The translations under genes were made by a program, and so were the position numbers. From Antedon mediterranea (lineage: Eukaryota > Animalia > Echinodermata): 64,000 nucleotides of DNA. Under the pieces are notes generated by a model, which was given only the letters and a program-made list of their open reading frames with translations, was not told the DNA's origin and did no database searches. Where the stretch lies: assembly GCF_964355755.1 (NCBI RefSeq), contig NC_092671.1, forward strand, positions 25,122,070 through 25,186,069, read 5' to 3'. The stretch's first letter is position 1. The number at the start of each line of letters is the position of its first letter. Shown one piece after another: positions 1 to 35,400 of this stretch.

Positions 1-299
1 ATCGACAATAAAACTATAAAATGTTTACGTCGGCCGGGAATCGAACCCGGGACAACTGCTTGGAAGGCAACTATGTTAACCACTACACCACCGACGCACG
101 CATTATAATCGGGTTATGCTGTATTTCCATGGATCAAATTGACAATAAAACTATAATTTGTCTGCGTCGGACGGGAATCGAACCCGGGACAATTGCTTGG
201 AAGGAGACTATGTTAACCACTACACCACCGACGCGCGAACTACAGTCGAGTTATGCTGTGTTTCTATGGATCAAATCGACAATAAAACTATAAAATGTT

Positions 300-371
300 T
301 GCGTCGGCCGGGAATCGAACCCGGGACAATTGCTTGGAAGGCAACTATGTTAACCACTACACCACCGACGC
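300..371 (-). tRNA. tRNA-Gly(TCC), consensus-intact copy
   Basis: Exact array consensus; all stems pair. Confidence 0.93.
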
Positions 372-436
372 GCGTACTACAGTCGAGTTATGCTGTGTTT
401 CTATGGATCAAATCGACAATAAAACTGTAAAATGTT

Positions 437-508
437 TGCGTCGGCCGGGAATCGAACCCGGGACAATTGCTTGGAAGGCAACTATGTTAACCACTACACC
501 ACCGACGC
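437..508 (-). tRNA. tRNA-Gly(TCC), consensus-intact copy
   Basis: Exact array consensus. Confidence 0.93.
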
Positions 509-573
509 GCATACTACAGCCGAGTTATGCTGTGTTTCTATGGATCAAATCGACAATAAAACTATAAAATGTT

Positions 574-645
574 TGCGTCGGCCGGGAATCGAACCCGGGA
601 CAATTGCTTGGAAGGCAACTATGTTAACCACTACACCACCGACGC
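574..645 (-). tRNA. tRNA-Gly(TCC), consensus-intact copy
   Basis: Exact array consensus. Confidence 0.93.
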
Positions 646-1644
646 GCGTACTACAGTCGAGTTATGCTGTGTTTCTATGGATCAAATCGACAATAAAACT
701 ATAAAATGTTTGCCTCGGCAGAGAATCGAACCAGAGACAATTGCTTGGCAGGCAACTATGTTAACCACTACACCACATTACAATGGAGTTATTCTGTTTT
801 TCTATAGATCACATTGACTAATAAACTTTGAAAACATTGGGTCGGCCGGGAATTGAACCCGGGACAATTGATTGAAACGCAACTAACCACTACACAACCG
901 ACGTCGTACTACAGTCGAGTAATGCTGTGTTTCTATGGATCAAATCGACAATAAAACTATAAAATGTTTGCGTCGGCCGGAAATCGAACCCGGGACAATT
1001 GCTTGGAAGGCAACTATGTTAACCACTACACCACCGACGCGCCTACTACAGTCGAGTTATGCTGTGTTTCTATGGATCAAATCGACAATAAAACTATAAA
1101 ATGTTTGCGTCGGCCGGGAATCGCACCCGGGACAATTGCTTGGAAGGCAACTATGTTAACCACTACACCACCGACGCGCGTACTACAGTCGAGTTATGCT
1201 GTGTTTCTATGGATCAAATCGACAATAAAACTATAAAATGTTTGCGTCGGCCGGGAATCGAAGCCGGGAAAATTGCTTGGAAGGCAACTATGTTAACCAC
1301 TACACCACCGACGCGCGTACTACAGTCGCGTTATGCTGTGTTTCTATGGATTAAGTCGACAATAAAACTATAAAATGTTTGCGTCGGCCGGGAATCGAAC
1401 CCATGACAACTGCTTGGGAGGCAACTATGTTAACCACAACACCACATTACAATGGAGTTATTCTGTGTTTTTACAGATCACATTGACTAATAAACTTTGA
1501 AAACATTGCGTCGGCCAGGAATTGAACCCTGGACAATTGCTTGGAACGCAACTATGTTAAAACCACTACACAACCGACGTCGTACTACAGTCGAGTTATA
1601 CTGTGTTTCTATGGAAAAAATCGACAATAAAACTATAAAATGTT

Positions 1645-1716
1645 TGCGTCGGCCGGGAATCGAACCCGGGACAATTGCTTGGAAGGCAACTATGTTAACC
1701 ACTACACCACCGACGC
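1645..1716 (-). tRNA. tRNA-Gly(TCC), consensus-intact copy
   Basis: Exact array consensus. Confidence 0.93.
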
Positions 1717-1918
1717 GCCTACTACAGTCGAGTTATGCTGTGTTTCTATGGATCAAATCGACAATAAAACTATAAAATGTTTACGTCGGCCGGGAATCGA
1801 ACCCGGGACAATTGCTTGGAAGGCAACTATGTTAACCACTACACCACCGACGCGCGAACTACAGTCGAGTTATGCTGTGTTTCTATGGATCAAATCGACA
1901 ATAAAACTATAAAATGTT

Positions 1919-1990
1919 TGCGTCGGCCGGGAATCGAACCCGGGACAATTGCTTGGAAGGCAACTATGTTAACCACTACACCACCGACGC
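1919..1990 (-). tRNA. tRNA-Gly(TCC), consensus-intact copy
   Basis: Exact array consensus. Confidence 0.93.
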
Positions 1991-2805
1991 GCGTACTACA
2001 GTCGAGTTATGCTGTGTTTCTATGGATCAAATCGACAATAAAACTATAAAATGTTTGCCTCGGCAGGGAATCGAACCAGAGACAATTGCTTGGAAGGCAA
2101 CTATGTTAACCACTACACCACCGACGCGCGTACTACAGTCGAGTTATGCTGTGTTTCTATGGATCAAATTGACAATAAAACTATAAAATGTTTGCGTCGG
2201 CAGGGAATCGAACCCGGGACAATTGCTTGGAAGGCAACTATGTTAACCACTACACAACCGATGCCCGAACTACAGTCGAGTTATACTGTGTTTCTATGGA
2301 CCAAATCGACAATAAAACTATAAAATGTTTGCCTCGGCAGGGAATCGAACCCGGGACAATTGCTTGGAAGGCAACTATGTTAAACACTACACCACCGACG
2401 CGCGTACTACAGTCGAGTTATGCTGTGTTTCTATGGATCAAATCGACAATAAAACTATAAAATGTTTGCGTCGCCAGTGAATCGAACCCGGGATAATTGC
2501 TTGGAAGGCAACTATGTTAACCACTACACCACATTACAATGGAGTTATTCTGTGTTTCTACAGATGTAGAAGGCAACTATGTTAACCACTACACCAACGA
2601 CGCGTGTATTACAGTCGAGTTATGCTGTTTTTCTATAGATGAAATCGACAATAAAACTATAAAATGTTGGCGTCGGCCGGGAATCGAACACGGGACAATT
2701 GCTTGGAAGGCAACTATGTTAACCACTACACCACCGACGCGCGTACTACAGTCAAGTTATGCTGTGTTTCTATGGATGAAATCGACAATAAAACTAAAAA
2801 ATCTT

Positions 2806-2877
2806 TGCGTCGGCCGGGAATCGAACCCGGGACAATTGCTTGGAAGGCAACTATGTTAACCACTACACCACCGACGC
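2806..2877 (-). tRNA. tRNA-Gly(TCC), consensus-intact copy
   Basis: Exact array consensus. Confidence 0.93.
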
Positions 2878-4324
2878 GCGTACTACAGTCGAGTTATGCT
2901 GTGTTTCTATGGATCAAATCGACAATAAAACTATAAAATGTTTGCGTCGGCCGGGAATCGAACCGGGACAATTGCTTGGAAGGCAACTATGTTAACCACT
3001 ACACCACCGACGCAGGTACTACAGTCGAGTTATGCTGTGTTTCTATGGATCAAATCGACAATAAAATTATAAAATGTGTGCGTTGGCCGGGAATCGAACC
3101 CGGGACAATTGCTTGGAAGGCAACTATATTAACCACTACACCACCGACGCGCGTACTACAGTCGAGTTATGCTGTGTTTCTATGGATCAAATCCACAATA
3201 AAACTATAAAATGTTTGCGTCGGCCGGGAATCGAACCCGGGAGAATTGCTTGGAAGGCAACTATGTTAACCACTACACCACCGACGCGCGTACTACAGTC
3301 GAGTTATGCTGTGTTTCTATGGATCAAATCGACACTAAAACTATGCAATGTTTGCGTCGGCCGGGAATCGAACCCGGGACAATTGCTTGGAAGGCAACTA
3401 TGTTAACCACTACTCCACCGACGCGCGTACTACAGTCGAGTTATGCTGTGTTTCTATGGATCAAATCGACAATAAAACTATAAAATGTTTGCGTCGGCCT
3501 GGAATCGAACCCGGGACAATTGCTTGGAAGGCAACTATGTTAACCACTACACCACTGACGCGCGAACTACAGTCGAGTTATGCTGTGTTTCTATGGATCA
3601 AATCCGAATCGAAAATAAAACTATAAAATGTTTGCGTCGGCCGGTAATCGAACCCGGGACAATTGCTTGGAAGGCAACTATGTTAACCACTACACAACCG
3701 ACGCACGTACTACAGTCGCGTTATGCTGTTTTTCTATGGAACAAATCGACAATAAAACTATAAAATGTTTGCCTCGGCCGGGAATCGAACCCAGGACAAC
3801 TGCTTGGGATTCAACTATATTAACCACTACACCACATTACAATGGAGTTATTCTGTGTTTCTACAGATCACATTGACTAATAAACTTTGAAAACATTGCG
3901 TCGGCCAGGAATTGAACCCGGGACAATTGCTTGAAACGCAACTATGTTAATTAAACCACTACACAACCGACGTCGTACTACAGTCGAGTTATGCTGTGTT
4001 TCTATGGATCAAATCGACAATAAAACTATAAAATGTTTGCGTCGGCCGGTAATCGAGCCCGGGGGACAATTGCTTGGAAGGCAACTATGTTAACCACTAC
4101 ACCACCGACGAGCGTACTACAGTCGAGTTATGCTGTGTTTCTATGGATCAAATCGACAATAAAACTATAAAATGTTTGCGTCGGCAGGGAATCGAACCCG
4201 GGACAATTGCTGGGAAGGCAACTATGTTAACCACTACACCACCAACGCAGGTACTATAGTGGAGTTATGCTGTGTTTCTATAGATTTGATCCATAGAAAC
4301 ACAGTATAACTCGACTGTAGTACG

Positions 4325-4971
4325 ACGTCGGTTGTGTAGTGGTTAATTAACATAGTTGCGTTCCAAGCAATTGTCCCGGGTTCGATTCCGGCCGACGCAA
4401 ACATTTTATAGTTTTATTGTCGATTATTTGATCCGTAGAAACACAGCATAACTCCACTATAGTACCTGCGTTGATGGTGTAGTGGTTAACATAGTTGCCG
4501 TCCAAGCAATTGTCCCGTGTTCGATTCCCGGCCGACGCAAATATTTTACAGTTTATTGTCGATTTGGACCATGATAACACAACATAACTCCATCGTAATA
4601 CGTGTGTCGGTGGTGCGGTGGTTAACTATGTTGATTCACTAAGGTGATTTTATTTAATAAACTTTTACTATATTTTGTTTTGTATTCATTCGTGTAAAGT
4701 AATGATCTACTGTATGTTTTTTTTTTGGGGGGGGGGGGGGGGTGGGGGTGTATGATAGGGGTTGATAGTTGCCTTTGCCTTTTTACTTTTCTGTTAATTG
4801 TTATATTTTATATTGTTATTGTAAAGGATGCACCTTTGTGCTAAGTGTGCCACCGATCTAAAGGTGTAATTCCAAATAAATAAATAAATAAATGTTGCCT
4901 TCCAAGCAATTGTCCCGGGTTCGATTCCCGGCCGACGCAGACGGTGTAGTGGTTAACATAGTTTCCTTCCA
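4325..4971 (+). pseudogene. Inverted (plus-strand) degenerate tRNA-Gly copies: 4325-4399, 4468-4539, a split copy at 4604-4633/4894-4939, and a fragment at 4943-4971
   Basis: Same tRNA and spacer sequence in the opposite orientation, with stem-breaking substitutions and indels. Confidence 0.85.
4634..4891 (+). mobile_element. Short 3' fragment of a non-LTR retroposon inserted into a tRNA-Gly copy
   Basis: Ends in an (AAAT)n tail; flanked by ATGTTG at 4628-4633 and 4892-4897 (putative TSD); the tRNA halves on either side rejoin when it is removed. Confidence 0.55.
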
Positions 4972-5053: not shown

Positions 5054-8000
5054 GATGTTCCCACAAACACACTTGTATCATTTCTGCGACCATTTGAAAC
5101 AGAATTATGGATACTGGTGTTCCTAGCTATACATGTAGTTGCCTTCTTTCTATTCATTTTGGATCGGCTTAGCCCCTTTAGCCGTATGCACACTGGTAGA
5201 TCTGGACAAGAGCAAGACGCATTGAATCTCTCACGAGCCCTTTGGTTTTCTTGGGGTGTGCTCTTTAATAGCGGGATTGGTGAAGGTAAGTTTTTTATTT
5301 TGCTCCTTCTACAAGAATTTTATTTTTTTCATTCAGCAAAAATATACGCTAAAATATTTAAATGTAATTGGTGATATCATTTCTTCCGTGTGCAATCAGG
5401 CAATACAACAAGCAATTTTAAAGATAACTTGAGACGTTTTATATTTTATTCTTTATATAGTATTTTAATATTTATACTGTTCATAATGTTTTATACATAG
5501 CATATTTTCTTATATATTATCTTATCCATTGTATAGTATTGTATGTTTTTAACTGTTGTTATTTTTATTGTAATTTGAACCTTGGAAGGCAAATTTCATT
5601 TACTTTGTATTTGACAATAAATTTTAACTTGAACTTGAACTTGAACTATATACCTATTTCTGGTATATCGACTTTCGCCTTTCCTTCTTTGACCATTGTG
5701 ATCGTTAAACAAAATCGCACACACTGTAAAATAGCCCTGTAAACAGTATAATAAATACAATAATTTTGTTTCTGTTACATTACAGTCAATATTTACATAT
5801 CATTACTATTTTTTTAGGAACACCACGTAGTCTGAGCGCACGCGTAGTGGGCATGGTGTGGGCCTTCTTTTCCATGATCATGCTGGCATCGTATACGGCT
5901 AATCTGGCAGCCTTTCTCGTACTAGAAAAGCCGGAGGGAAAGATATCAGGAATAAATGACGCACGGGTAAGTAGATCTATAGAAAGTACGATGTTGTTTT
6001 GCCTGTTTCTACTAGGAAACAATTAACGTTCTCGGTAATCTATCCGATATTGTTCCTCTAATGCTTGGCTCCCACTTAAGCGCAACGTAAGTAATTTGAC
6101 AAATTACAAGCGATAGAATATATATATATTATCCAAACCTGTCATTTTGTCAACTCGCTTACGTTGTGCTTACGTCTTCGCGTTGCGCCCGAGTGGGAAT
6201 CAACCCGTATTTGAACTACGGTACTAATCAGTTGATATAAGGTTTTAAGAATACTGTTTCATGACGTAGTCTAAATAATGTAATGGTCCATTGCTTACAT
6301 TAATTCTTAGATGCGTAATCCGTCCAACACGTTCAAGTTTGCCACAGTCAAAGGGAGCTCAGTGGACGCGTATTTTCGACGTCAGGTCGAACTCTCCACG
6401 ATGTATACTTTTATGACGAATTTCAATTATGTAAATGCTGATGAAGCAGTCGAGGCTGTAAGAAGTGGGTAAGATGGATAGTTAGAAACTAATTTCTTCT
6501 CTTCCTCCACTCTTTTTAAAAATAGCTATTTAATACAGATAATATTATAATCTTTGTTTTTTGACATGTGAGATCTGCTTCAATAAAATACGTAATGATC
6601 TATTTCTTTATATAGTGAACTAGATGCATTTATATGGGATTCAGCCATGCTAGACTACCAGACGTCTAGAGATTGTAACCTTGTTACAGTAGGAGAGTTA
6701 TTCGGTAAATCAGGGTTTGGTATAGGCTTACCAAAAGGTAGTCTGTGGACGCAAGAAGTATCTTTGGCAATTTTACATTTGCAAGAAGGAGGTGTGATGG
6801 AACAACTTGATTCACAATGGATTAGTTATCGAAATTGCCCAGTGGTGGACAATCAGCCAGCAACGCTGAATCTTGAAAATATGGGAGGTTGGTACGCCAA
6901 AGACATTTAACCAATACTAGGCCTAATTTTGTAAACCGTCATCTTACAGGCCTAAACAATTTTTACCAAATCAGAAAATACATTCAGCCTACTTGGGAAA
7001 TCAATTGACAAAAAAAACAGAACATCAGAACATTTAGGTTTGTTTTCTAATGAACGCCGCATTCTGTAAATTAATAATAATACTATTAATCTCATTTTCT
7101 ACATGAACACAGGAACGTTTTTACTGATTGGTTTTGCGGTATTTGGCGGCTTATTTATGATTGTTATAGAACGGAAATACAAAGAATACCACGACCGAAA
7201 GAAACAGCAAAAAGATCTTGCCGGCCAGGTTACCCTTAAATGGAAGGCACAATTGAAGGTGAGTTACTTTACTATTTAAAAGTAATATTTTTTTATTCAA
7301 CAACCATTTTGGTCAAAGACTGCTGCTGGTATGTTAATTACATTTTTAGAGTTGAATCCATAGAACATAATTCTAACGTTGAGTTAAAAATGCATGTTGC
7401 ACATTGCGTAGGCGTTACACTTTACTTACGTTTATCTTTCTTCACCAATGCGTACAAATTGGTCCTTAATTATTAAGGTCAAACCCCGGGTCAAATACGA
7501 TTATAAACACTGTTATAATTATTTTTGTAGAAACGACAAACAGACGACAAAAAACAGAAAGAGACACAGAACGAGTCGTGTTCAGAAGAGGAAGAACTTG
7601 CATTACTTGAAAAGGGTAAATTAAATAATGTTTAGTTTATATTTCCGGCAAAATAAAACACCTGTAGACTGTGCCGGCTCTAGCTCGCTTTTAAGTCGCG
7701 TGCGTGCAACGCGACTCTACAGCTCATTATGTCGGTCGGTCGGTAAACACTGAGCACTAGGGTCATAGAGAAGCAACGCAAGCGAGCTGACCAATCAGCG
7801 ACATTTCGAATGATCCATCGCTTGTGATTGTTCAAATCTTACTTACGTTGCGTTACGTCCTTGTGTTGCGTCTTTAGTTGTAACCAAGCATAATAGGCTA
7901 CTATCAAAGTTCTTTGCTACTATTAAGATGATATTTTACCGGGGACTAGCCCACGCCGGTTATTGACAGTTTACATCCTCATTTTCAAAAGAGGAGGTAA

Positions 8001-8417: not shown

Positions 8418-9330
8418 AATCTTGACCGCTAAAATGTTCGCTGATTCTGCACAATGTACTGTTCTGCACTCTTTACATTTGTGTTCTTTTTTAAAGTAAA
8501 CCTATTCATAGAAAATCTCAACCAGGAATATTTGGCTTTCGTTAAATACGTTAAAGGAAGCTGCTCTGAATTGAATACAAGGCTGTGAATGTTTTTACGA
8601 AGCAAGATGTTCCATGGCATAACTGGAAGATCATTTTGAAATTCATCTGTTTTTTGATTGATAATCAGTTTAAAAAAAAAATTATGGATCTATTATGCTA
8701 TTATTTCTATTATTGCTAAAATGTAGATAAGATATTATGTGTCATTCATAAAGATGTATCACCCCCGCACCCCCTCAGTTAAATTCAACCAAAAACTCAT
8801 TGGCTTGGCAGCCAATTTGACACTTTATTGCTTTAAATTACAATTTTTCAGGTAAATAATTTAGTTTTTTCGATCCAATTTTTGGGCAAAGTGAATAACT
8901 ATTGGAACAAAAATAGCATATTCAATTTTTCGGGGGACAATATATATTTAAGTATAAAGTTTAAACTTAAGACACCAATTTACACACGTAGTTAGGCCTA
9001 CCTCATTATCAATATTTCTACGATTTAATTATACGTACCAAAAAGAAATAAATCATATTATTATTATCTCTTATTTTTATGAACATTTGTGTCCAGCTGA
9101 CACTGAGGAGGTACGATTAAATACTTCTATATGATTTAAATAATAAACAACACTTTGTATTACTTTTAGATCAAATTAATTGCATTTTATCAGAACATTT
9201 GTTTGATCTAAATAGATGCACTAGTGTTAACGATAAACTGATCACACATTGAAAGTGTTATATAGATATAAAACGATCAAAATAATTGTATAATTACATA
9301 ATAATAAATGTGCTGTTAATTAAGATGAAA

Positions 9331-10490
9331 ACGATTAGTTGGATACCTGGGAAGGAAGCGCCTCTCAATGGATCTATGTATGATGTATACGATTAGTTGG
9401 AAACCTGGGAAGGAAGCGCCTCTCAATGGATCTATGTATGATGTATACGATTAGTTGGATACCTGGGAAGGAAGCGCCTCTCAATGGATCTATGTATGAT
9501 GTATACGATTAGTTGGATACCTGGGAAGGAAGCGCCTCTCAATGGATCTATGTATGATGTATACGATTAGTTGGATACCTGGGAAGGAAGCGCCTCTCAA
9601 TGGATCTATGTATGATGTATACGATTAGTTGGATACCTGGGAAGGAAGCGCCTCTCAATGGATCTATGTATGATGTATACGATTACTTGAATACCTGGGA
9701 AGGAAGCGCCTCTCAATGGATCTATGTATGATGTATACGATTAGTTAGATACCTGGGAAGGAAACGCCTCTCAATGGATCTATGTATGATGTATACGATT
9801 AGTTGGATACCTGGGAAGGAAGCGCCTCTCAATGGATCTATGTATGATGTATACGATTAGTTGGATACCTGGGAAGGAAGCGCCTCTCAATGGATCTATG
9901 TATGATGTATACGATTAGTTAGATACCTGGGAAGGAAACGCCTCTCAATGGATCTATGTATGATGTATACGATTAGTTGGATACCTGGGAAGGAAGCGCC
10001 TCTCAATGGATCTATGTATGATGTATACGATTAGTTGGATACCTGGGAAGGAAGCGCCTCTCAATGGATCTATGTATGATGTATACGATTAGTTGGATAC
10101 CTGGGAAGGAAGCGCCTCTCAATGGATCTATGTATGATGTATACGATTAGTTGGATACATGGGAAGGAAGCGCCTCTCAATGGATCTATGTATGATGTAT
10201 ACGATTAGTTGGATACCTAGGAAGGAAGCGCCTCTCAATGGATCTATGTATGATGTATACGATTAGTTGGATACCTGGGAAGGAAGCGCCTCTCAATGGA
10301 TCTATGTATGATGTATACGATTAGTTGGATACATGGGAAGGAAGCGCCTCTCAATGGATCTATGTATGATGTATACGATTAGTTGGATACCTGGGAAGGA
10401 AGCGCCTCTCAATGGATCTATGTATGATGTATACGATTAGTTGGATACCTGGGAAGGAAGCGCCTCTCAATGGATCTATGTATGATGTAT
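9331..10490. repeat. 58-bp minisatellite, about 20 copies
   Basis: Unit ACGATTAGTTGGATACCTGGGAAGGAAGCGCCTCTCAATGGATCTATGTATGATGTAT, head-to-tail with no spacers. Confidence 0.97.
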
Positions 10491-13400
10491 ATAAAAAGTC
10501 TATACTTGGTCGTAGATAATAATGGTGATCATTTTGTATCATTATTCAATTCGAGTTCGAGTATTGATTCAAACATGCACCATAATGTGTGTATCAATTT
10601 GGTATTCCTCATAAATTTCTCCCCCGAGTGTTTTAACCCGGATCTAACTTCTAACAACTTTCGTAATAATCTCGAAAAAAACCCCTAAAACTGAGCTAAT
10701 TTTATTATTTTAAACAAAGATCAGTAAACCAAAGATGAAAACTAATTGTCCAAATGAAATGAAAGTATATGTCATCATATAAATACCAAATAAGGCAATT
10801 TCTAAATTGCATGAATCGACTTACACAAATTTAAAGTAGCCATGTCAGTGACGAAACAATCGGAATCAACTAATTATCAAGGCCTGGCGATGATAATGAA
10901 ATGGAAAATGTTTATTGATGCAACAAATTACAGTAGAAATACATAAAACCTCATCTATAGGCCTATTAAAAAATATATAATAACAATATTATAAATCCAA
11001 AGGCAAATTACTGAAAAAATGACAATGCTGTGGATCTCAATAGAGATACAAAAAAAAAAGCGAAAAGCTAAATCAAAACGATAAGTAAAACAGCCAAAGA
11101 AGTTAGCAGAGCTTTCGGGCAACACTAGCCTTTCATCAGTGCATTTTACTCAAACATTTTACTCAACTATAAATGATTCCTGTAAAAAATAATTAAACCA
11201 ATAGAAATAGAAAAAAAATGATTTATTGTCACAAAATCCGAAAGATAATTTTACAAGAACATAACATTTGGAAGAGTGGGTATAATGAAGACACGCACAA
11301 TTGAATGTGATTATACGTGACAAAATATTTAAAAAAATCATATTTTAAAAATGTAGGTGACCGTAGGCCATGATGACGTCATAGCATCGAATAGGCAAAA
11401 GTTTTCAAGAAGTCATGTCACAACTCATTAGCTATAATAGATTCAAAATAGGATATTAAATTTACCATGTACGCCATTTTTATTCCACATAGAATTGATA
11501 CTTGATATGGAATAATTGTTTAAAACTTTATATGTTTGATTTGAATGTAACATCAATCTTAAATTTTCTGAAAAAAAAGTTACATTACGTGGCTTTGACG
11601 TCATTAAAATGTTATTAGCAGTTAATTCTGTTGGCCAAATTATGAAATGTTCAAATTTAAGGTCAACTCATGACGGTAAATAAATCAAAAACTGAACATT
11701 AACAGAATCACAAAAAGACATTTACACAGACTTTCAATCATCAAACTGAAATTGTTTAATTTCACAAAAAAACAAAGGAAAATTCTTATTTAAAAACTTA
11801 TATTAAACATATTATTTATACAGGATCATATAACAATGTTATTGATAGTCCTGTTTACAATATTAAAAAGAGACCTTAAATACAAATCTTAAAATAATGG
11901 AATTTTTATACTCGCCATTTGCACGAGTCAAGCTGAAAGACATTCTGTAAAAAGCAATGTGGTATCTTTTAAAATAAATGAGATATTGTGTTGCTACTAT
12001 AATTACCTCTGGTAACAATCAATCAAACAATCAATATACGGAATAATATGGAATACAAGCCACAAAAAGAAGACACTCAATATAGATAACCAAGGCTTTG
12101 AAATATTTAAATGGAAAAAGGCAGGATCTAGATTGATACATGATCTTGATTCGTGTCTGTCTGAGACAAAAGATAAAGATATATACTATATAAAAATCTG
12201 GAAAGTTTTTTTAATGAGTACATATATATATATATTTTTAAATATTTCATATGAATACTGTATTCGATAAATCATGGAAGAAAAATATATATAATATTTT
12301 CCCTCCATAGATAAACTACCAAGCATATCTAGGCTATTGTTGACAACATACTGTACATTCGCCTTGGCGAAAAATGTGTTCAGTTACATTGTAAAAAAAA
12401 AAGCATATTTACATTGCTAATAAGTCAATTCAAAAATATGAATTTCAATACTGTCCCTGTTAAATATTAAATACTATTGTACAATTTTCCTGATTAAATT
12501 ATTTGCATATTATAAACTTCTCCAGCTCTGTACAAAGTCTATGTGATAAGTGATTATGAACAATAAATTACTGACAAATGAATTAATTGGAAACTCAATA
12601 AAAAACTTACTATCCTTCGTTAATGAAAGGTATTTGTTTATAGGACCTACTTTAATCAAATATATTGTTCTAATTTATATACGATGAAATACAATGAATT
12701 ATTCTAATTATCATGGTTGTGTGATCATTAAAACTGTTTTAAACATCTGTATGAATAATTCACTGTTCTTGTACAATATCTGTACCCAATTATTATGAAT
12801 CACTCAGAATGCATGGAATGCAGTGTATATCATTTTAATTATTAATTATAATTTAATTTTAATGACTCTTATTTTGAAAGAGATTATGTAGTTTGGAATA
12901 ATTTTAGTAGTCAAGAAAAACATGTTGAAAATTGGAATGTTATTTTACAACTACAGAAGAATGTTAATATTTATTATTGTTATTATTAATATTATTCATC
13001 ATTGCTTGGGTTGTGGATCAAGACAGAAAACAATGTGTATAAATAATAATACATAACAACATTATTTTGAAGAGAATCGAAATCGTATTATATTATCTGA
13101 GTATAAAGAGTGGGGGAGGGTAGGCAATAATGCAACGCAATAAAGCTCCCTCTCTCACTTGATTCACGATTGATACTTATACTATAATGTATTGAACATA
13201 TCTGCTATGTATTATTTATTTTCTCTTGTTGGAAGTACTAGACACAAGATATTATTGATTGTTTAAAGTGCACACGATTAGGAATTACAATACTGTACAC
13301 TAGGACCATATTTATAGCCTATCCGAGAAGAATACTATTGGAACAATATACCATGATTATTTAGCATTTTCGTACCTCAAAAACTAAATTTTATTTTTTT

Positions 13401-13667
13401 CCATTGGTATAGTAGTTTAAGATCTAAGTTCTAATGGAATTGGGAAATGAAGTTTGTGGCCAAATCATTTTTACATTTTAGCCAAATTAATTTTGTTACA
13501 TATTGTATATTATCTCTCACACTATTCTACTGAAACTTCTATAGGTACAATAATTAGTATTGAAAGGTGAATTAAAATCCCTTCTAATCAGAAATTAAAT
13601 ACTAACAACTGTTCTGTAGTAACTTCAAATGACTTGATGAGAAAATAATAAATTATTGCACATTGTA

Positions 13668-16112
13668 TTATAAAGAATAACCATCTATTAACTCATTGGC
13701 ATCTGTAATAATAGCTCTAAGATATGTTGAATCTGCGATTTTGTCTGTAATATCAACTACACATTTAAGCACAAATGCTATTTTTTTTTCATTTTCTGAA
13801 ATAAGTTGATTTTCTTGAAAGAAAGAGTTGATTGAAGACTTCAGCGAACCCTTCTTTGGAGAATTTGCCATGTCTGCCACTATACGTTTGCTTGGTTGCT
13901 CCCATTCTGAATTTAACGTATCTGCTATTCTTCTCATTTTTCTAGCCATCTTAAAAACAAAAATTTCATTACAATGCATGCAAAGTATAACAATCAAATA
14001 ACAAGTTGTGAAAAATGTGGTTGAAATAATGGAACAGCGCGAACACATATTATGGGAAAAAGCTCTCATAAAAACATATAATAATATTGATAATATTGAC
14101 TCTGATCTTAATACAATCCGGAGCGGACCCTGGATTTTTAAAAATGAAACATTGAGTATTTAAGCCATGGTGGGACATGTGGCAAAGAGAATTCAGTTAA
14201 ATAACACCCCTAGATGCCCTGAAATGGTACTCTCGTCATGTTGCACGCCAGTTATCATCAAAATATTTTTGTTTAGGTTGCGTCTTTCAATGCGAACATC
14301 TAGGAAAACAGTCTGCAGCGTGGTTCTTAAAGTATATACTGTTATATAATTATGGTTAAGGACAAAATTGAATTTATTTTTAATAACAAAAGAAGCAACA
14401 ATGAATGGATTGATCAGAGAATGAAGGAAATACCTTGAAACACAAACACATTAATCTGCAGTTTGTATGACAAGTAGGCCTACAATTTACATCTATTTTA
14501 TTTTTTAACAATACTTTATACCGGTAGTGATTTCTTCATTAGGACCTACACAAAATAAAATATATTGTCTCTCACTCATGCATGACAAATTGTCAAATTA
14601 AAATGCCACAGCATTTTGGTATTTAGGCTGATCTGAATTGGGCTGATCTTGTAATGAATGTTACAGGGTAAGTGTGGGGAATATTTTCACATGTTGAATA
14701 GGACAGTAAGGTAAGACAACACACCATTCATTTTGTGTAATACCACTTGACCTAGGAACCATAATTTTTGTGGCCATCCAATGCTTTCCTCTGGGCGCTG
14801 CTGAAACTGCTCAAACTTTATGTGACAAACAAATGTGATGTGCCAATATATGGAAATGATGATGTCTTATCACTACGATATTTGGGAATAACACTACCAT
14901 ATTTGGGCAGATCACACTTTTTTTGTCAAACGAATGTGATAGTGTAAAGCTTTAGGCACCCCGGTAAGCTCTGGGGCCCCTGGGTTGTTACACTGCACTG
15001 CTTGTCATACAGTAGAATAAACGTCTACACTTACTTCTTTGGTATCTGATAAAGTTGGTCTTTCTTCATCGTCAGGACCATCTACTTCAATATCAAGGTC
15101 AAATTTTTGTTTAGGCACAACTTAAAAAAAATTATTGTGGTGGTCATTAAAAATATTTCAATTCACATCCAACCATTTGGAGAGCCACTAAATAAATAAA
15201 TTAAATAAAATACATAAATATTGTATATATCGTAAATCTTCTAATAGTCACCCACAATCTAATAGTAGCCCCCCCCCCCCCTAAGTCAATCTATAATAAT
15301 AACCCACTACTCTAATAGTAACCCATTAGAGTCACAAAAACTACTGACAAAATGACACTATGAAGACTGGTCGTTTAATGACAGCTGTATTTTGAAAATC
15401 AGGAGATCATGCATGTTGATCTCGGGAGTGGGCGGAGGATTGAGTGTTTTTGAGTTTATAAAATAAAGTTACAGTTCATACAAATTCGAAATGTTTTAGT
15501 ATTTTCTATGAGTTGCTGACCGGAAAAGTTTGGGTGGGTTAATATTTTCATGTGAGATTAGTAATAGTAATTACTCCACTACTCTAATTAATAGTAACCC
15601 CATTCTAATAGTAACCCATCCTTAAAAAAAACAATCAAAGAATATTAACCCAGGGTTACAATTAGAACATTTACGGTATATAAAGAAACAGATATTCATT
15701 GGTAGTCAAATAAAACAGAAAAGCAGTGTACCGTCTATTGAACGACTAGCTACCTAGGCCTACTAAGGCTTAGGCCTAGGTAGCTAGTCGTTCAATAGGC
15801 TAAGCCTAGTGTTAGTAGTAGGCTAGATAGTAGTACAATATTAGTCGTAGTAGCAGTCTAGGGCAGGGCAGGGAAGGCCTATAGCCATACTATTACTAGG
15901 CCTAGGTAGGTAGGTAGGTAGCCTGGATTTGTGGAAAAGAAAGTATAGGCCTATACTAAATTAATACTAGTAATCAACTACGGTCGTTTAGTTTAGGCCT
16001 AGCTAGTATAAAATATAAACATTCTTTTTTACTTACTCTCACTAATTATATCGCGTGAAAGTGTACTATTTTCTTCTAAGTACAATGTTAAAAGAGCCGT
16101 TGTTTTCGACAT
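13668..16112 (-). CDS. BH3-motif Bcl-2 family protein, BID-like, 147 aa in 3 coding exons
   Basis: Exons 16112-16037, 15120-15035, 13949-13668 with GTAAG donors, T-rich/AAG acceptors, phases 1 and 0, and start context ACAAA-ATG. Protein: MSKTTALLTLYLEENSTLSRDIISEIVPKQKFDLDIEVD|GPDDEERPTLSDTKEMARKMRRIADTLNSEWEQPSKRIVADMANSPKKGSLKSSINSFFQENQLISENEKKIAFVLKCVVDITDKIADSTYLRAIITDANELIDGYSL. BH3-like MARKMRRIADTLN. The BID assignment is inferred. Confidence 0.8.
15230..15676. mobile_element. Tc1/mariner-pogo-like MITE in intron 1 of the BID-like gene
   Basis: Inverted termini (T)CGTAAATCTTCTAAT...ATTAGAACATTTACGG flanked by TA; subterminal CTAATAGTAACCC repeats. Confidence 0.6.
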
Positions 16113-26400: not shown

Positions 26401-29400
26401 AGGCTGTTCAGCACTATCTTGACTAGTAGTAACATGGTTATCATTGTTATGAAGATTAACAATAGATTCTTTAAAATCTTTAATTATCCTATTAGTTAGT
26501 TCAACAGGATACCTTAATTTGTTAAACATCTTAGAAATTTCTTGAACTTCTTCAAGAAAGATGTCATTAGTAGATGACAACTTGTATGCCCGATTAAGCA
26601 TAGTATGTACAAGATTTTTCGACATGGCTATCAGTATCATAATGCAGAAGAAGTTTACACTTTAGTTTCTAATAAACTATCAGATGTTTTGGAAATTACC
26701 ATTCCTAAGAAATTTATGTACCCTCCGCTGGTCGATAGTATAGGCCTTACTGATAATGTTTCCTTATGTGTTTTGGGGAGACCGTAAGGAGTTGATCATA
26801 TTGTTAAACTGATGCTTCCTTTGTGAAGCATCAGTTAACAACAAATTTAGACCCGTAAGTAAAACACAGCCTAAATCAAGAGGAAGACCAATCAAACATT
26901 ACCATCCGCTGATAGTAAAAGAAAAACAAGTACTGTATCACATAACTTTTTGAATAATAAAAATTGGAAAAATGTTTTTTACTGCTTAAAATCCATCGAA
27001 AAAAACACCACAGTGTATAAGGCGTTTGGTAAGAAATTTGGTCACTTAAGCTTGGTTCCTTGCAACACAAGAAGCCCATTGATTGGCCCAATGTAAGTCA
27101 ATTTGACCAATCACAATGTAGTGGATCATCCGATTCCAAACTGTTGCTTGTGACTGGTCAACTCACTTGCATTGCATCTATGTCATTGACCTACATCCAA
27201 ACTTTATCCTATTTGTTTGAACAATTTAATTACACCACAAGCTGTCACGCTTGTTGGGATCATCATTCACACAATCAGCAATTAGTTGCCATCTATACCT
27301 CATTCACGGCTCTATAAATACTGTAATAAAATACATGGCTCCAAATCTATATTAATTACTGATATTACATTCTATTTTATTAGTGAACTGTACTGTTTAA
27401 AAATCGATTTGACATTATTACTTTATAATTTCAGGAAACTGCAGCCTTACTAAAAAAAGAAGCTGATGTTAAAGAAAAAGATATACAGAATAATGAAGCA
27501 AGTAATAACCAAGATGTATCGTCCGTTCTCTCAGCATACAATAAGTAAATACAGTAGCAACAATTTTTTTTTTTTCATAAATATGCACACTATCCAATTG
27601 AAAACAATACATACTACTTTAAAGGATATAAATGTAAAGAAGCGAAGGTTACAGGGCACCAAGAGAAATCTACAGAAGATGGAATTTTCAGTCTTCTGTT
27701 CTCAAATAGAGATGTTAAAGCCCCATTCCCTACGTTTTTTAGATCTAATTTAAGATCACAAACTATATTTAATGTAAAAATAATACTATATGGTCCTATT
27801 GCGATAACTTTTTTCGTCTTTAAACGGTTAAAAATGTGAAAAATAAATCGATTTTAATAATTATAGCGGCCCGCTATAAATCCCAAAATGCATTGCGCGC
27901 GGATTGATATTGTTGTTTTTCACCTGTAATTCGCCCACTTTTCGATCGATCGTGAAGCCAAAACAAATGGAAGACTCCTAACTTTTCAGCGAAAATACTG
28001 GGTTTTCCCCAATTTGTATCAACGGAGTCTGGCAAAAATAGAAAGACAATTAATGCAGCAACTATACAACGTCAGACTAGGTATATAGCTAGCGTACGAT
28101 GTTCGTACGTTACCGATGTTTACCAGCTAGGCCTACAAAACTAAGCCTAGCTAGGCTAGGCCTGAGACCGTCCACGAGAGGTCGATCGCCGCGAGCTACT
28201 TAGGTAGTGCATTGTTTCTCACTTTTTATCATAATTTACCATAAAACGTACATTTAAGACAAGGAATGACATGGTTTAATGTTTTTAAAGTGATATATAT
28301 GTATTATTTTCCAAAAAACGTCCAAAATTGCAGGGAAGGGGTCTTTAAAAATATCGTCGGTGCAACTCCACTAAAAGACTATATACATGTTCACTACCTG
28401 AAGTACATAGCCCATATCTGCCGAGAACCAAATAACTCATTAACAAAACAAATGCTATTTGCACAAGCCCGAAAACCATACTATCGTGACCCCTGGATTA
28501 AATTAAGCAATCTCCTTCAATGCGATCCTAGTCAAGCTAAGAAGCTAACCCAGTCAAGGAAGCCATTCAACAGTCGGACCCAGCATATATTTGGATGCTA
28601 GAGAAGACTGCCTCTTGGATGCGACTGGCATCAGTGGGAGAAACGAAACTGTACTGTACTGTTACAGTACATTATTTATATTATTACTATTTACAGTATT
28701 TGTTATCTTTCAGTGAGAGTGATCCCACCTTTTATCATGAGCATTATAATAATTTGATGCAGTTTATCGAAGACTCACTAGATGTTCAGAAGGTAACAAT
28801 GGTCACCATATCTAATGATCTATCTTAACTTTTGAATAAGGTTCCTCATTGATATTATGTTGCAGTTGCAATATCATCAGTAAAACACTGTACAGTATAC
28901 AAATATTGCCTGTTTACAGGTGTGACATAAAATTTGTGAGTAATATAGTCCTTTTTAACACTTTGACTGCCAGAGGTTTTTCCAGTTAGAAACTGCCACC
29001 GCCAGCGTTTTTAGCCCAATTCGATGTATTTATCAAAGCTGATTGAAACTATGTATGTGATCTGATTTATATGTAATTTAGACTAAAATAATCATAAAGA
29101 TTTTAGCTTTACAATGGTACCAAGAACGATTTTCAAATCGCAATATGTAAATCCTAATAGTAAAATAAAAGTAACCCACTGTTTTTTGTTTCGCACAAGA
29201 AAGTAGAGATTCGCGATTTTGTGCAAGACACAATATGAAATATCGCCCGATGAGATCAACAAACAAGGAAAAAGTTACTTACACGGCACCAATAGGCCTA
29301 TAAAAACAAGTTATCACTATCGAAAAATGTATTACATTTTATAAATCATAAATCTTACATCAATCGCCAAAATCCACATAGTAAAGACACCAGGCCTAGT

Positions 29401-32400
29401 TAACAGGCCTAAAGTTGGTCCGGAACCGTTTTACGACTAGGCCTAGGCTAGCCTAGTACTACTAGCCTAGCTAGTAAACTGATCCATACCATTTCTAAAC
29501 AAGTTTGTTGCTTGAAACTCTGTCACTTACAGTGAAACACCAAAACAATTAGGGTATACATACAATAATAAAATTAAAGACTTCATATTGAAAATGACTC
29601 CATGATTTTTTATTTAGATAATAAACATCGCTCTATGCGCTACTGTGATGCGCGGTGTATGTTATTCAAATGGTAAAATATTGACTGTCCAGACCGAATA
29701 TAGTGTCCATATTTATAGTATATACCAATAATTACCGGATTTCGTAAAAAAAATGCGAAACACAAAGATCTTTGTGTTTGGCAGTCACATGTAAAGTGTT
29801 AACAGAGAATTAATAATAATCAATTGTTGTATTACACTGATAAAAAAAGGCAATATGGAGGCAATACATAGTGAAAATGTTTCTGTAAACCATAGTAGAG
29901 TTAAGGCCAACTCAGAAAGCGTCGTACGACGAGCCCCACAGGCTTGGGCTTCACTCGCAGGTGCTGTCTAAGTTGAATCCGGAGATATTCTGAATAGCGT
30001 CAGGCATGGTTTTTAGGTCATCGTGAGAACATTTAACCTTTTTTCCCGACAAGATGACTTGTCGTGTCTCGTCATATGACACTGTCTGAGTTAGCCGTTA
30101 CCAATAGTGGTTTGCTCTCCTTGTACAGTAACGCAGCATGGAAAAATGAGCTTAGAAATGCAAGTATTTTTTGGCCTTAAAATATTCAATGATTACTGAT
30201 ACTGTTACTGTAAATAAGCATTACTAAAATAGTTCACCATACTTGTTTTCTTTAGAGCGAGTTGTCTCAGATGCTGTATCCCGTGTTTGTTCACATGTAT
30301 CTAGAATTAGTCTACAATGATCATGAAAACCAAGGTAGGTTAAATATCATGTCTTCCTGTAGTGTATTCTATTTTAATCAATTTAGTAATCATAAGAATA
30401 TGTCAGTTAGTAATATTACGGTACATGCTGGTCATGCATGTTCTGCTTTTACTGTAGATAGAGGCTTGTCTATATTATTATTAGACACCAAACAGAATAT
30501 TTCTACTACAGTACTGTTCATACTGCTTGAACAATGTAACTAAACATCTTCCACTGACAGGTTGGAATGCTGTATCTTTAGTCCACTGACTGATCACTAC
30601 CAGACTAATATTTTTAATCCTTTGATTATTTTTAATCCTTTGATTATTTTCAATCCTTTGATTATTTTCAATCCTTTGATTATTTTCAATCCTTCGATAA
30701 TTTTCAATCCTTCGATAATTTTCAATCCTTCGATAATTTTCAATCCTTTGATAATTTTTAATCCTTTAATTATTTTCAATCCTTTGATTATTTTTAATCC
30801 TTTGATTATTTTTAATCCTTCGATAATTTTCAATTCTTTGATAATTTTTTAACTAAATTTAAAAGCTACCAAAATTCTGTAACTCAAAATGCTACTGTAC
30901 CTTAACAATCAACCCAAACATTACTTTATTTATTAAACTAAAAATAAACTAAAAATTATTTATTAAATTTGTAAATGTAATGTATGTACATGCTGTGTAG
31001 CATCTGTTCATATTCTACACAGCATATTGACCTCCCATAATTCTAATTCTGACCTATTTAAAGTTTACGGTTCTCACTCTCTATAGGTAAAATCATTTAT
31101 TGCAGGGGACGATTGTACACTGTATAGTACGTGGGAGGTTTTATTATCCAATGAGGTGCATTCTAATATAGACATTCGGTTTGTGTCTTTACAGTAGAAG
31201 GGCCCTTTGTCATCAAACTATGTAATGCTACTACTGTATAGATCTGCTCTCAGCACTTGCGCTTTACAATTTCTAGTATTTCTGTTATTTATTTGTATTG
31301 TGTATATAACAGCAACCTAAACATATCATTCATATTAAATTGTTTCTTTACTATTTTTCATAATACGTAATATCTAAGACTGATAATATTAATTATAAAA
31401 ACAGTTTTAAATGCAAATGTTTTTGTTATAACAAGAACGTTTGCATTCAAAATATATTTTTGGAAGGAGATGAATTTCTTCTTAACATTTTCTGAACAGC
31501 TAAACATTTCTTTGATGAGTACAGTAAGGAACAAGAGGATTACCATCAAGAAGATCTAACAAAACTGTCAGTTGTTACCAAGAAAGATCACATGACTAAG
31601 AATGAACTAATGGTATGCTTTAGGTAAGTAAAACTAACAAGGAAAACATTCAAGATTTTCATTATGACCATTATTTCCACTGCTGGTACTTCACTTCATA
31701 CAAAAAGGGGGTTCGTTTGACTGTCTTTAATGAAATATAACCTGTCCAAAACAATATTTAATCCTGCACAACGTTTTAAATTAATTACAAAACGTCATAT
31801 TCCATGTTACTAGGCTGTTACGGCTGATGCCGAATGTACTGTACAATTACGTCGAAATTTTGGTGTAAAATATTACAGTTATTACAACAATTACCACATT
31901 TTGCGAATATTTATTTGAACTAAAATTACCTGTCTAGCAATTTTGAAAGCCAAAGAAATGCACAATTGAAATATCATTGCCTTGAATTATGCTATTCTAA
32001 CTTAGCATTATTTTGGGGAATCTGTTAAGGCTGTACATACTAGGATGATAACGATCGATTAGGTATGGACACATTCTTTTATTAGTTTATTATTAATATA
32101 GGTAAGATGTCTTAACAAATGTTTATCTCTCTAAAATCTTTCTTTTTCTTTGTTTAGAACAAGTAAATATGTGATTCGTTTATCCCGTGACTCTTACCAA
32201 TCATTGAGAAGGTACCTTAAAGACAAACAGAATAGTACAGTGCTAACGATACTAGAAGACCACTTGTATGTTGATGGTAGGGATCTGGCTTGCTAGAAAA
32301 ATTATCATTATCATAATCACAGTATCATGTGCTATGAATGCTCACTGGCTAAACCTAGGGGCCCAGGGCTTATAAAAGCATGAACAGCCCCAAATGCAAA

Positions 32401-35400
32401 CTACCCAGCATTAAACCAGTGATTAGGCCCCCTGTGTTTTGCCACTGCTTTACTATAATACAAAAGTTGGCACACATACAATGTCTCTCAATTCCACATA
32501 ATCTTTTGATCATAATCACTTGATTATCTGTCATTCTCATGCTCTAATGCCTTCCAATTGCAGAGGGTTCTTATGACCCCTTCGCGTTTGTAAGGGTGCC
32601 CATTTGAAGTAGGCATATTCAGTGTATGCCAAACCTGTGCACTTTATACTTTTATACAGTGTTCTATCGAGAGAAACTTTCTTTCAGATCATTAGATTGG
32701 AATGGTCAATGGATCTGTCACTTTACTTGCTTTGGAGTGTGCCCATTTTAACACCACCTTTTACATATTGGTGTTCAATGGATGTTCAAATGTGTTCACA
32801 AGACAGTTCAAATGTGTTCACATGACAGTTCAAATATGTTCACATGACAGTTTAAATGTGTTCACATGACAGTTCAAATGTGTTCACATGACAGTTCAAA
32901 TGTGTTCACAAGAAAGTTCAAATGTGTTCACATGACAGTTCAAATGTGTTCACATGACAGTTTAAATGTGTTCACATGACAGTTCAAATGTGTTCACAAG
33001 AAAGTTCAAATGTGTTCACATGACAGTTCAAATGTGTTCACATGACAGTTTAAATGTGTTCACATGACAGTTCAAATGTGTTCACATGACAGTTCAAATG
33101 TGTGTGTGTGTTCAAATGTTTATATGTTTTATTAAGTGTTTGATGGGATGCCAAGAAACAAAGAACAGATAAGTGCAAAGGCTGGTGGAATGGTAGGAGA
33201 AGCAAGGCGTGATGGTAAGCAATCATTTTTGTTCATGAATTATTGCATATTTTACATAGATTACTCTTTGATTATTTATCAAAATATCATGAGTAAATCT
33301 ACTGTTTTTTGTATATATTTTTCATACTTCCATAGATAATTTGAAGGCATTTACATTTTTTGTCTTTTCTTTTTATTTCTAATATTTTTTTTGTGACTGA
33401 GTATAAATAAAACAAATATACCGAAATTCATTCAATTAAAGTTAGCCTACATATTACACATAAATTGTACAATCAAACATCGAAACATAAAATTGGTAGA
33501 TGAAAGTATGCCTAACCAAAATATCATTGCATTTACCATACCTTGCAATTTGTGTTTATCAATAATTTTATTTTTATTAATAGCAAATAAATCTAAGGTG
33601 TATTTTGGGTTGTTGAAAGAACCAGACATAAACCTACAACTCGACGATGAAGAAGAAAGTGGTGAAGGTGATGACAAACCAAAGGTACACCTAATTAGAT
33701 TCCTGTCATTTGAATCAGATTGAATAAAAAGTAGGCCTAGGCCTACATTTTATTCACAATGAATGACATTTATTGTTTGTTTTTTGTAAATATAGTATAC
33801 AGTATGGTTTTTGTATAAATAGTATATTGATTTGGATTTATAAACACACCATTGTAGTGTTAATTATGTCAACAAATGACCAAACCAGCCTAGGCCTAGC
33901 ATTATACTAATAGGCCTAGCTAGGCTAGTAAGGCACATTTTGTTTAAATTAGCCTGTAGAGATGTTACCATTAATTAATAAAAAATCATACATGGTATAA
34001 AACTAATTGAAATGTTTCTTTTAGTCTAAATTTGTACATACTGTACAGTATATCTCTCCAAAAATGTACCCGTATCACACTTGTATCATTGCGGTGGAAG
34101 TACAAAATGTACCCGTATCACACTTGTATCATTGCGGTGGAAGTACAAAATGTACCCGTATCACGCTTGTATCATTGCGGTGGTGGTAGTACAAAATGTA
34201 CCCGTATCACACTTGTATCATTGCGGTGGAAGTACAAAATGTACCCGTATCACACTTGTATCATTGCGGTGGAAGTACAAAATGTACCCGTATCACACTT
34301 GTATCATTGCGGTGGAAGTACAAAATGTACCCGTATCACACTTGTATCATTGCGGTGGAAGTACAAAATGTACCCGTATCACACTTGTATCATTGCGGTG
34401 GAAGTACAAAATGTACCCGTATCACACTTGTATCATTGCGGTGGAAGTACAAAATGTACCCGTATCACACTTGTATCATTGCGGTGGAAGTACAAAATGT
34501 ACCCGTATCACACTTGTATCATTGCGGTGGAAGTACAAAATGTACCCGTATCACACTTGTATCATTGCGGTGGAAGTACAAAATGTACCCGTATCACACT
34601 TGTATCATTGCGGTGGAAGTACAAAATGTACCCGTATCACACTTGTATCATTGCGGTGGAAGTACAAAATGTACCCGTATCACACTTGTATCATTGCGGT
34701 GGAAGTACAAAATGTACCCGTATCACACTTGTATCATTGCGGTGGAAGTACAAAATGTACCCGTATCACACTTGTATCATTGCGGTGGAAGTACAAAATG
34801 TACCCGTATCACACTTGTATCATTGCGGTGGAAGTACAAAATGTACCCGTATCACACTTGTATCATTGCGGTGGAAGTACAAAATGTACCCGTATCACGC
34901 TTGTATCATTGCGGTGGTGGTAGTACAAAATGTACCCGTATCACACTTGTATCATTGCGGTGGTAGTACAAAATGTACCCGTATCACGCTTGTATCATTG
35001 CGGTGGTGGTAGTACAAAATGTACCCGTATCACACTTGTATCATTGCGGTGGTAGTACAAAATGTACCCGTATCACACTTGTATCATTGCGGTGGAAGTA
35101 CAAAATAAGCAGCTCTATTAGATTTCTAAAGAAATATTTTTCGTATGTCAAAAGATTTTTTTCTTTCGTACACTATATAGTGCGTACTATTGCACGCCAT
35201 GTGACCCACAATCATCCAATGAAATTACAGGAATTTCTTTAGGTGTTATATAAAAGTTATAATAATATAAATTATAACATTCACTTTTTTATTTGGCAAA
35301 ATTAATACTTTTTTTCTTTGTACAATAGCATGTACACAATTTTTACTAGGGCTTCAATTATCAAATTTATTTTCATTGTGTATTAATACTATCTATATCC

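Follow-up and report, generated by a model that had tools for sequence, protein, structure and literature searches.

Introduction

Does an invertebrate possess a protein built like the vertebrate death switch BID, in which a caspase cut frees a Bcl-2 homology 3 (BH3) segment? The question is raised by a three-exon gene on the minus strand of a stretch of 64,000 nucleotides (nt) of the Antedon mediterranea genome (NCBI RefSeq assembly GCF_964355755.1, contig NC_092671.1, positions 25,122,070 to 25,186,069), hereafter the window. A first-pass annotation, made from the letters of this stretch, had described the gene as hidden, placed it in an invertebrate host and proposed a divergent ortholog or analog of BID. 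The host is indeed an invertebrate, a crinoid echinoderm. In the analysis presented here, structure prediction and motif comparison suggest that the spliced gene encodes a 147-residue predicted Bcl-2-fold protein, which probably acts as a BID-like, caspase-activated pro-death switch.

Bid is described as first appearing in Chondrichthyes, with none in hagfish or lamprey, and the BH3-only candidates of echinoderms as disordered (PMC8998228). BID was not found in Paracentrotus or Strongylocentrotus, and Casp8 was present (PMC6394757). Caspase-8 is thus reported from echinoderms (PMC6394757, PMC12066828), the second source covering the death effector domain sequence of the Acanthaster enzyme. Echinoderms also have caspase-9, Bcl-2, Apaf-1 and a mammal-like mitochondrial outer membrane permeabilisation, which has been read as possible convergence (PMC10959488). 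With both caspase-8 and mammal-like mitochondrial apoptosis present, the question arises of how the two pathways connect in these animals. In BCL2DB, BID-like proteins form one of three clades of Bcl-2 homologs (PMC3945527), and BCL-G and BFK are covered elsewhere (PMC10244440).

Identity of the protein and its relatives

The spliced product, 147 amino acids (aa) long, is identical to RefSeq XP_071943038.1, an "uncharacterized protein" of A. mediterranea that was found through a search with exon 3. The exon coordinates, splice sites and reading frame proposed in the first pass were right, and calling the gene hidden was an overstatement: it is already annotated, and only its family lacks an assignment. 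Because the RefSeq record may rest on the same genome, it provides no independent proof of expression.

By using phmmer with exon 3 against 1.84 billion representatives, two matches were obtained at E<=0.001, namely XP_071943038.1 itself and XP_033114947.1 from the crinoid Anneissia japonica (E 2.3e-17, 48% identical), the sole homolog found. The Anneissia record has 29 additional N-terminal residues, and its Met30 aligns with Antedon Met1. Nothing was added by two word-based searches, one that used the full protein (1 of 229 candidates) and one that used a two-sequence profile (2 of 675), and scans of metagenome contigs (259 pattern matches) and viral contigs (358) confirmed none. Relatives outside crinoids were accordingly not found by searches whose reach was limited to one exon or a two-sequence profile, and distant orthologs are possible. 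No second copy of the gene was found within the window.

Some apparent matches were discarded. The stop-to-stop open reading frame (ORF) at 13668-14159 had only sub-threshold Pfam matches such as ArfGap, which came largely from its intron-derived residues, and Pfam returned nothing for exon 3 alone. PDB hits on designed repeat proteins, Exportin-T and a POU domain were attributed to chance or to the summing of weak helical similarity.

Predicted fold

AlphaFold2, run on the two-sequence alignment, gave five concordant models with a predicted local distance difference test (pLDDT) of 78.0-80.5 and a predicted template modelling score (pTM) of 0.78. Seven helices are predicted at residues 3-15, 20-26, 49-65, 67-83, 90-100, 107-124 and 128-145, with a loop at 27-48 in which residues 31-40 fall below pLDDT 50; 115 of the 147 residues reach at least 70. 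The cut motif is located in the sole disordered part of the model, and helices 1 and 1' are predicted to pack on the helical core. The model covers Bcl-xL from helix 1 to helix 6 (residues 2-180) and ends before the C-terminal BH2 region; on BFK it ends at residue 150, likewise ahead of BH2.

The Bcl-2-type fold implied by the first-pass annotation was supported by the structure searches. In a Foldseek search of the PDB, 39 of the 40 listed rows were Bcl-2-family proteins, with Mcl-1 first, mouse BID at rank 3 (probability 0.93, 14% identity) and BFK at rank 4 (12% identity). When the exhaustive VIA search ordered 48,161 representative chains, Bcl-2-fold structures filled the first 32 places, the poxviral proteins N1L, A52 and M11L being taken as members of this fold. 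The best Z score was 9.8 (CED-9 and Bcl-xL; root-mean-square deviation, rmsd, 2.7-3.1; 116-120 residues aligned), followed by BAK at 8.9 and BAX at 8.5. BFK gave Z 7.7 (rmsd 3.7, 114 aligned) and an identity of 14%, the joint-highest among the Bcl-2-fold rows, and BID (1ddb) gave Z 7.5 (rmsd 6.2) with the longest alignment, 143 of 147 residues, spanning BID 14-186. On this Z scale BID came 21st among the cluster representatives, level with BFK and behind Bcl-xL, CED-9, BAK and BAX. The first unrelated chain had Z 5.9 and covered residues 68-147 only. When Foldseek's 662 chains were re-aligned, all 50 listed rows were Bcl-2-family (Z 9.0-10.4, BFK 9.3), and BID was not among these best 50. In a viral structure library, four of the top eight rows had a probability >0.5: an apoptosis inhibitor, an F1L homolog, one gammaherpesvirus ORF and one unnamed entry.

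Cut motif, BH3 and their conservation

Between the two crinoid proteins, helix 1 is identical at 8 of 13 positions, the D35-G40 motif at 5 of 6, the remainder of the loop at 4 of 16 and BH3 at 9 of 13; the later helices range from 6/17 to 9/20. Conservation of the cut site and BH3, named as a check in the first-pass annotation, is therefore seen in Anneissia; the difference between the motif and the rest of the loop has a Fisher p of 0.023 for a window picked post hoc. In each protein, IE(V/I)D-G is the sole [ILV]ExD site and lies 20 (Antedon) or 19 (Anneissia) residues before the BH3 Met; D42, kept in both species, forms a DxxD overlapping it. With 100,000 shuffles per test and patterns selected after seeing the sequence, shuffling the loop produced an [ILV]ExD[GSA] site by chance at a rate of 1.2% for Antedon and 1.8% for Anneissia; the corresponding rates for the BH3 pattern, with the whole protein shuffled, were 1.4% and 1.6%. 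The BH3 pattern is matched in both species, following the N-terminal loop on predicted helix 49-65. Three coding base differences are listed in other sequencing runs, giving K31Q and L103F, outside the cut motif and BH3.

As the first pass had observed for Antedon, NWGR (the BH1 core) and a C-terminal anchor are missing, and this holds for both crinoid proteins: NWGR, GW and a C-terminal hydrophobic tail are absent from each, the last 19 residues have a hydropathy of 0.25 and -0.28 in the two species, and both finish at the same alignment column. Helix 1 fits, at L7-L12, the canonical BH4 spacing of Bcl-2 proteins. Of the pseudo-BH4 signature of BID and BFK, ECIxNxLxxxFL, only the LxxxYL end could be recognised by eye in both crinoids. 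BID and BFK carry a basic residue, K146 and R110 respectively, at the position of the NWGR tryptophan; in the crinoids K109/K110 are conserved at the start of the 107-124 helix, in a register that may or may not correspond.

Gene model and transcript

The exon borders carry AG acceptors and GTAAGT donors and frame 147 open codons on the minus strand, in which the D39 codon occupies 15082-15080 and M55 is the first residue of exon 3 (Table 1). Twelve codons ahead of the ATG at 16112 there is a stop in the same frame, with no earlier Met between the two.

Table 1. Positions of the gene parts and protein motifs within the window.
Feature	Position	Strand	Description
Coding exon 1	16037..16112	-	76 nt; aa 1-25 and one base; predicted helix 1 and extra helix 1'
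BH4-like motif L7-L12	16077..16094	-	Two hydrophobics, x, x, aromatic, hydrophobic; pattern also in Anneissia
Intron 1	15121..16036	-	916 nt, phase 1, GT-AG; contains high-copy repeats
Exon 2	15035..15120	-	86 nt; aa 26-54; acidic loop (predicted disordered) and start of BH3 helix
Conserved D-I-E-V-D39-G40-x-D42 motif	15071..15094	-	Predicted group-III (caspase-8/6/9-type) cut after D39; overlapping DxxD at D42
Intron 2	13950..15034	-	1085 nt, phase 0, GT-AG; directly ahead of BH3
Exon 3, coding sequence	13668..13949	-	282 nt; aa 55-147 and stop; BH3 helix to end of helix-6 equivalent; no BH2, no transmembrane tail
BH3 motif M55-N67	13911..13949	-	Met at usual Leu position; Ala-Asp at usual Gly-Asp
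Central hydrophobic helix, aa 107-124	13740..13793	-	Bcl-2 helix-5 equivalent; acidic/basic residues open the helix at the place of NWGR
3' untranslated region (UTR)	12500..13667	-	Minimum extent; contig 1 of run X1 continues further

Five sequencing runs cover the stretch, none recorded as RNA; four of them (X1-X4) were compared, X1 being RNA by the tool's guess. In X1, one contig of 2098 nt has a depth of 150.8, against 3-5 for single-copy intron pieces. It joins 15035 to 13949, flanked by 86 bases on the shorter side and >1400 on the longer; it also joins 16037 to 15120, skipping 15121-16036 (CT..AC ends), with only 27 exon-1 bases, which falls below the tool's junction support bar of 31 bases. 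Both junctions foreseen in the first pass were thus seen, the second being firmly supported and the first less firmly. The listed pieces of runs X2-X4 are unspliced across both exon-2 splice sites and the exon-3 acceptor. X1 has no coverage of bases 16064-16112 or of the 5' UTR and is uninformative there either way. As the contig is unbroken from 13949 through the stop to 12500 and beyond, the stop codon sits in the mature transcript. An alternative last exon with BH2 and an anchor was rejected, since the contig continues past the stop without a break and the Anneissia protein terminates at the matching point, with the limit that rare isoforms would drop out of contigs.

Two further observations concern the surroundings of the exons. 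Very high-copy short interspersed repeats occupy 14811-14931 and 15272-15660 in the two introns, with a summed contig depth of up to millions. A second abundant X1 contig (1242 nt, depth 249) extends from 16282 to at least 17000, beginning about 170 bp upstream of the ATG; only short ORFs (<=63 aa) lie near it, and it may be a non-coding transcript running divergently or belong to the UTR of a neighbouring gene.

Proposed mechanism

BID and BFK are described as having the Bcl-2 fold, lacking NWGR, adding a helix 1' and bearing a caspase site in the loop that precedes BH3; both are inert until cut, whereupon helices 1/1' detach and BH3 is freed (PMC8814693). The crinoid protein has each of these anatomical features, and we infer the same cut-and-release cycle, with predicted cleavage, binding and killing steps. 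Group-III sites, those of caspase-8, -9 and -6 and granzyme B, are marked by Ile at P4 and Glu at P3; caspase-8 is therefore the leading candidate, not the only one. An initiator-type caspase, most likely caspase-8 and possibly caspase-9 or -6, would cut after D39. The 39-residue, 4.5-kDa N-terminal piece would leave at a membrane, and the remaining fragment, computed at 108 residues and 12.2 kDa for the predicted cut and so of the tBID-like size first proposed, would expose BH3. Once exposed, BH3 would block the crinoid's pro-survival Bcl-2 proteins, activate BAX/BAK or do both, and in this way promote mitochondrial apoptosis; the DxxD at D42 could permit feedback by effector caspases.

Under the PROSITE myristoylation rule, G-P and G-Y starts are unfavourable. 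The first pass had judged the new Antedon N-terminus a poor myristoylation context, and the Anneissia one shares this weakness; as both break the pattern, membrane targeting would rest on the central helices.

Weighing the alternatives

Several observations weigh against this reading, and the first group concerns the fold itself. The AlphaFold2 model was built from two sequences only, and no Foldseek match in the PDB reaches E 0.001. The best Z scores, 9.8-10.4, fall short of the value of about 13 that the tool sets for helical bundles, and the fold case therefore rests on the uniformity of the ranking. The ESM Atlas model (pTM 0.60) had no Bcl-2 neighbour among 10 rows, no usable feature match and no structural row with TM >=0.5. 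A model of exon 3 alone, now superseded as it was without helix 1, resembled generic bundles; a single Bcl-2-fold chain closed its list, at rank 50 of 50. A match to a curated Bcl-2, BH4 or BID profile, a kind of check proposed in the first pass, did not materialise: Pfam gave 0 families for either crinoid protein at E<=10, with HMMER filters that discard most matches above about E 0.1. The PDB sequence search found no BID or BFK match at E<=10, and the only Bcl-2-family match of the full protein, BAX residues 48-100 in BH3 register (E 0.96), was non-significant, as were weak matches to PUMA BH3 peptides (E 1.5 and 1.7). The lack of any significant sequence match to a Bcl-2 protein, together with the Atlas and exon-3 results, is what would be expected of an unrelated helical protein with a chance BH3-like stretch, for which AlphaFold2 was drawn to a memorised Bcl-2 fold. 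We consider this very improbable, given that the five models agree, that three structure libraries indicate one fold, with viral Bcl-2-type entries among the highest probabilities, and that the BH4-like segment, BH3 and central hydrophobic helix stand in the right order and are conserved. On the predicted structure, the crinoid protein is held with high confidence to have the Bcl-2 fold.

The remaining points bear on function. Conservation rests on two species of one order, and Met and Ala at the usual Leu and Gly of BH3 may, judging from the sequence, weaken binding. Caspase sites in this loop occur in anti-apoptotic members too, so that the motif alone leaves the sign of the activity unfixed. 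The role of cytochrome c in echinoderms (starfish) is itself disputed (PMC7022251). The protein could be a soluble pro-survival or non-apoptotic Bcl-2-fold protein, resembling BCL-G or the poxviral signalling regulators of the N1/A52 type, whose loop motif is inactivating or incidental. Its closest structures by Z are pro-survival proteins, its BH3 is non-canonical at two key positions, and the pro-apoptotic role of BH1-less BCL-G has been undermined in mice (PMC10244440). We nevertheless regard this alternative as quite unlikely: NWGR, which a BH3-binding groove requires (PMC8814693), is absent, and BH3 and the cut motif are the best-conserved segments, as expected of a working BH3.

Descent or convergence

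The preferred reading, a BID-like switch, concerns function, and both descent and convergence are compatible with it; by one route or the other, an invertebrate deuterostome likely possesses such a switch. Under descent, the gene would share an ancestral gene with vertebrate BID or the BID/BFK group, and the caspase-cut switch would predate the echinoderm-chordate split, its fast evolution having hidden it in other invertebrates. The extra helix 1' and cleavable loop, specific to BID and BFK (PMC8814693), point this way, as do their Foldseek ranks of 3 and 4 at 14% and 12% identity, the joint-highest VIA identity of BFK and the length of the BID alignment, read with its rmsd of 6.2. The two crinoid proteins are merely 48% identical, so that deeper orthologs could escape BLAST-type searches. 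The missing Pfam match and the lack of a BID or BFK sequence match in the PDB argue the other way, and Z favours CED-9 and Bcl-xL by about 2 units, with BID outside the best 50 re-aligned chains. The pseudo-BH4 signature is present solely at its LxxxYL end. BID is moreover reported absent from lamprey and hagfish (PMC8998228) and two sea urchins (PMC6394757), and descent therefore needs several losses or misses. Descent is in our view possible, with doubt prevailing.

The first-pass annotation overlooked an origin from a truncated multi-domain Bcl-2 gene. In that case the gene would have branched off, in crinoids or echinoderms alone, from a multi-domain gene of the Bcl-2/BAX type, with loss of BH1, BH2 and the anchor and convergence on BID's layout. 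The canonical BH4 spacing of helix 1, the best structural scores going to multi-domain members, the BAX match, an end where the BH2/anchor part of multi-domain genes would start and homologs found in crinoids only are consistent with such an origin. The BAX match is, however, non-significant, the search reach was limited, and BID is represented by a nuclear magnetic resonance model with a long loop, which depresses its Z regardless of ancestry. This origin is a serious possibility that we hold tentatively. Of the original proposal, the BID-type layout stands; orthology to BID is no more than possible, caspase-8 is a candidate protease, and the structure searches do not single out BID. That the protein is genuinely co-orthologous with BID, or with BID and BFK together, and is cut by crinoid caspase-8 is unlikely. 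If it were, the death-receptor-to-mitochondrion link would date from the deuterostome ancestor, not from jawed vertebrates, and unrecognised fast-evolving orthologs would be expected in sea stars, urchins, hemichordates, amphioxus and lampreys.

Other features of the window

The neighbours had been named GRIN1 and TAF5. Ionotropic glutamate receptor exons (Pfam Lig_chan) at 5054-6910 (+), tail-to-tail with the BID-like gene, fit GRIN1, and a gene at 28541-43782 (+) with TFIID_NTD2 and WD40 exons is TAF5-type; a fragmented reverse-transcriptase element lies inside an intron of the latter (41445-42709, -). Adjoining the receptor exons, positions 25-4540 hold a tandem array of 27 tRNA-Gly(TCC) genes (26 minus, 1 plus), mostly with a 137-bp period; this may represent clustered tRNA genes or else a satellite derived from tRNA. 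A 3.76-kb segment is repeated at 54352-58109 and 60243-64000 with 99.97% identity, with an older 97-99% copy at 44320-47992; within the copies are exons (46468-46902, 58800-59360) that encode an unnamed Ser-rich coiled-coil protein, and the repeat reflects either recent tandem duplication or an assembly artefact. An intronless rhodopsin-family G-protein-coupled receptor gene (7tm_1, E 2.6e-29) lies at 52771-53928 (-). Minisatellite arrays at 9321-10491, 30544-30852, 34011-35106 and 49992-51090 yield long spurious ORFs.

Significance

No report of an invertebrate or crinoid BID, nor of this gene, was found in the text surveyed, largely that of open-access papers, and no invertebrate BID is named in the available text of PMC4715348, PMC11463336, PMC13303787, PMC10923776, PMC8282340, PMC10839352 and PMC3196919. 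What is new is an unrecognised crinoid protein with a predicted Bcl-2 fold and the anatomy of a caspase-released BH3 switch, a design that the available sources describe so far from vertebrates. It offers a concrete candidate for the link from caspase-8 to mitochondria in echinoderms. If it is homologous to BID, the circuit of caspase-8, BID and BAX/BAK goes back much further than has been assumed; if it is not, the Bcl-2 fold twice gave rise to a BH3 switch released by a protease, and such a twofold origin, if true, bears on the proposed convergence of the echinoderm and mammalian pathways (PMC10959488). As Bcl-2-family members can escape Pfam and BLAST, the stated invertebrate absences need a structure-based recheck.

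Comparison with known Bcl-2-family systems

With vertebrate BID, the crinoid protein shares a predicted Bcl-2 fold without BH1, BH2 or anchor, in which BH3 is the only canonical motif, and an extra helix after helix 1; ahead of BH3, both have a long disordered loop holding a site of initiator-caspase type whose next residue is Gly. It is shorter (147 aa, compared with 195 aa for BID), both in the loop and at the C-terminus, gives no Pfam or sequence match to BID and has a partial pseudo-BH4. Its BH3 carries Met and Ala-Asp, the predicted new N-terminus begins with G-P (Antedon) or G-Y (Anneissia), poor for myristoylation, and an intron lies directly before BH3, with none after it.

The first-pass comparison with BID was right in layout and missed BFK/BCL2L15 (7ccl), which has the same cut-and-release layout: a similar size (163 aa), no BH1, no anchor, a helix 1', a caspase site near residue 40 before BH3 and a proposed BID-like release (PMC8814693). 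Against the crinoid model, BFK gives Z 7.7-9.3 at 12-14% identity. It differs in having BH2 and a DEVD effector-caspase site at D41, whereas the crinoid protein is without BH2 and has a group-III site with Ile at P4. The multi-domain proteins Bcl-xL, CED-9, BAK, BAX and Mcl-1 give the best structural scores (Z 7.7-10.4) and share the BH4-like spacing of helix 1 and a BH3 in helix 2; unlike them, the crinoid protein lacks NWGR, BH2 and a transmembrane tail and has an extra helix 1'. The predicted echinoderm BH3-only proteins (118-373 aa) likewise have BH3 as their sole clear motif, on one exon, but are disordered and Bim/Bad/Bmf-like (PMC8998228), whereas the crinoid protein is predicted to be globular. 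Classical BH3-only proteins of the Bim, Bad and Puma type are disordered outside BH3, in contrast to the crinoid model, which is mostly ordered, with seven helices.

The protein is hence distinct from BFK, since BH2 and DEVD are missing, from the multi-domain members, since it has neither BH1 nor BH2 nor an anchor, and from the disordered BH3-only proteins. Its predicted layout is that of BID, and that of BFK apart from BH2. It is not filed as BID, because there is no profile match, the structure ranking has no preference for BID and the pseudo-BH4 is partial; yet on this evidence it likely works like BID.

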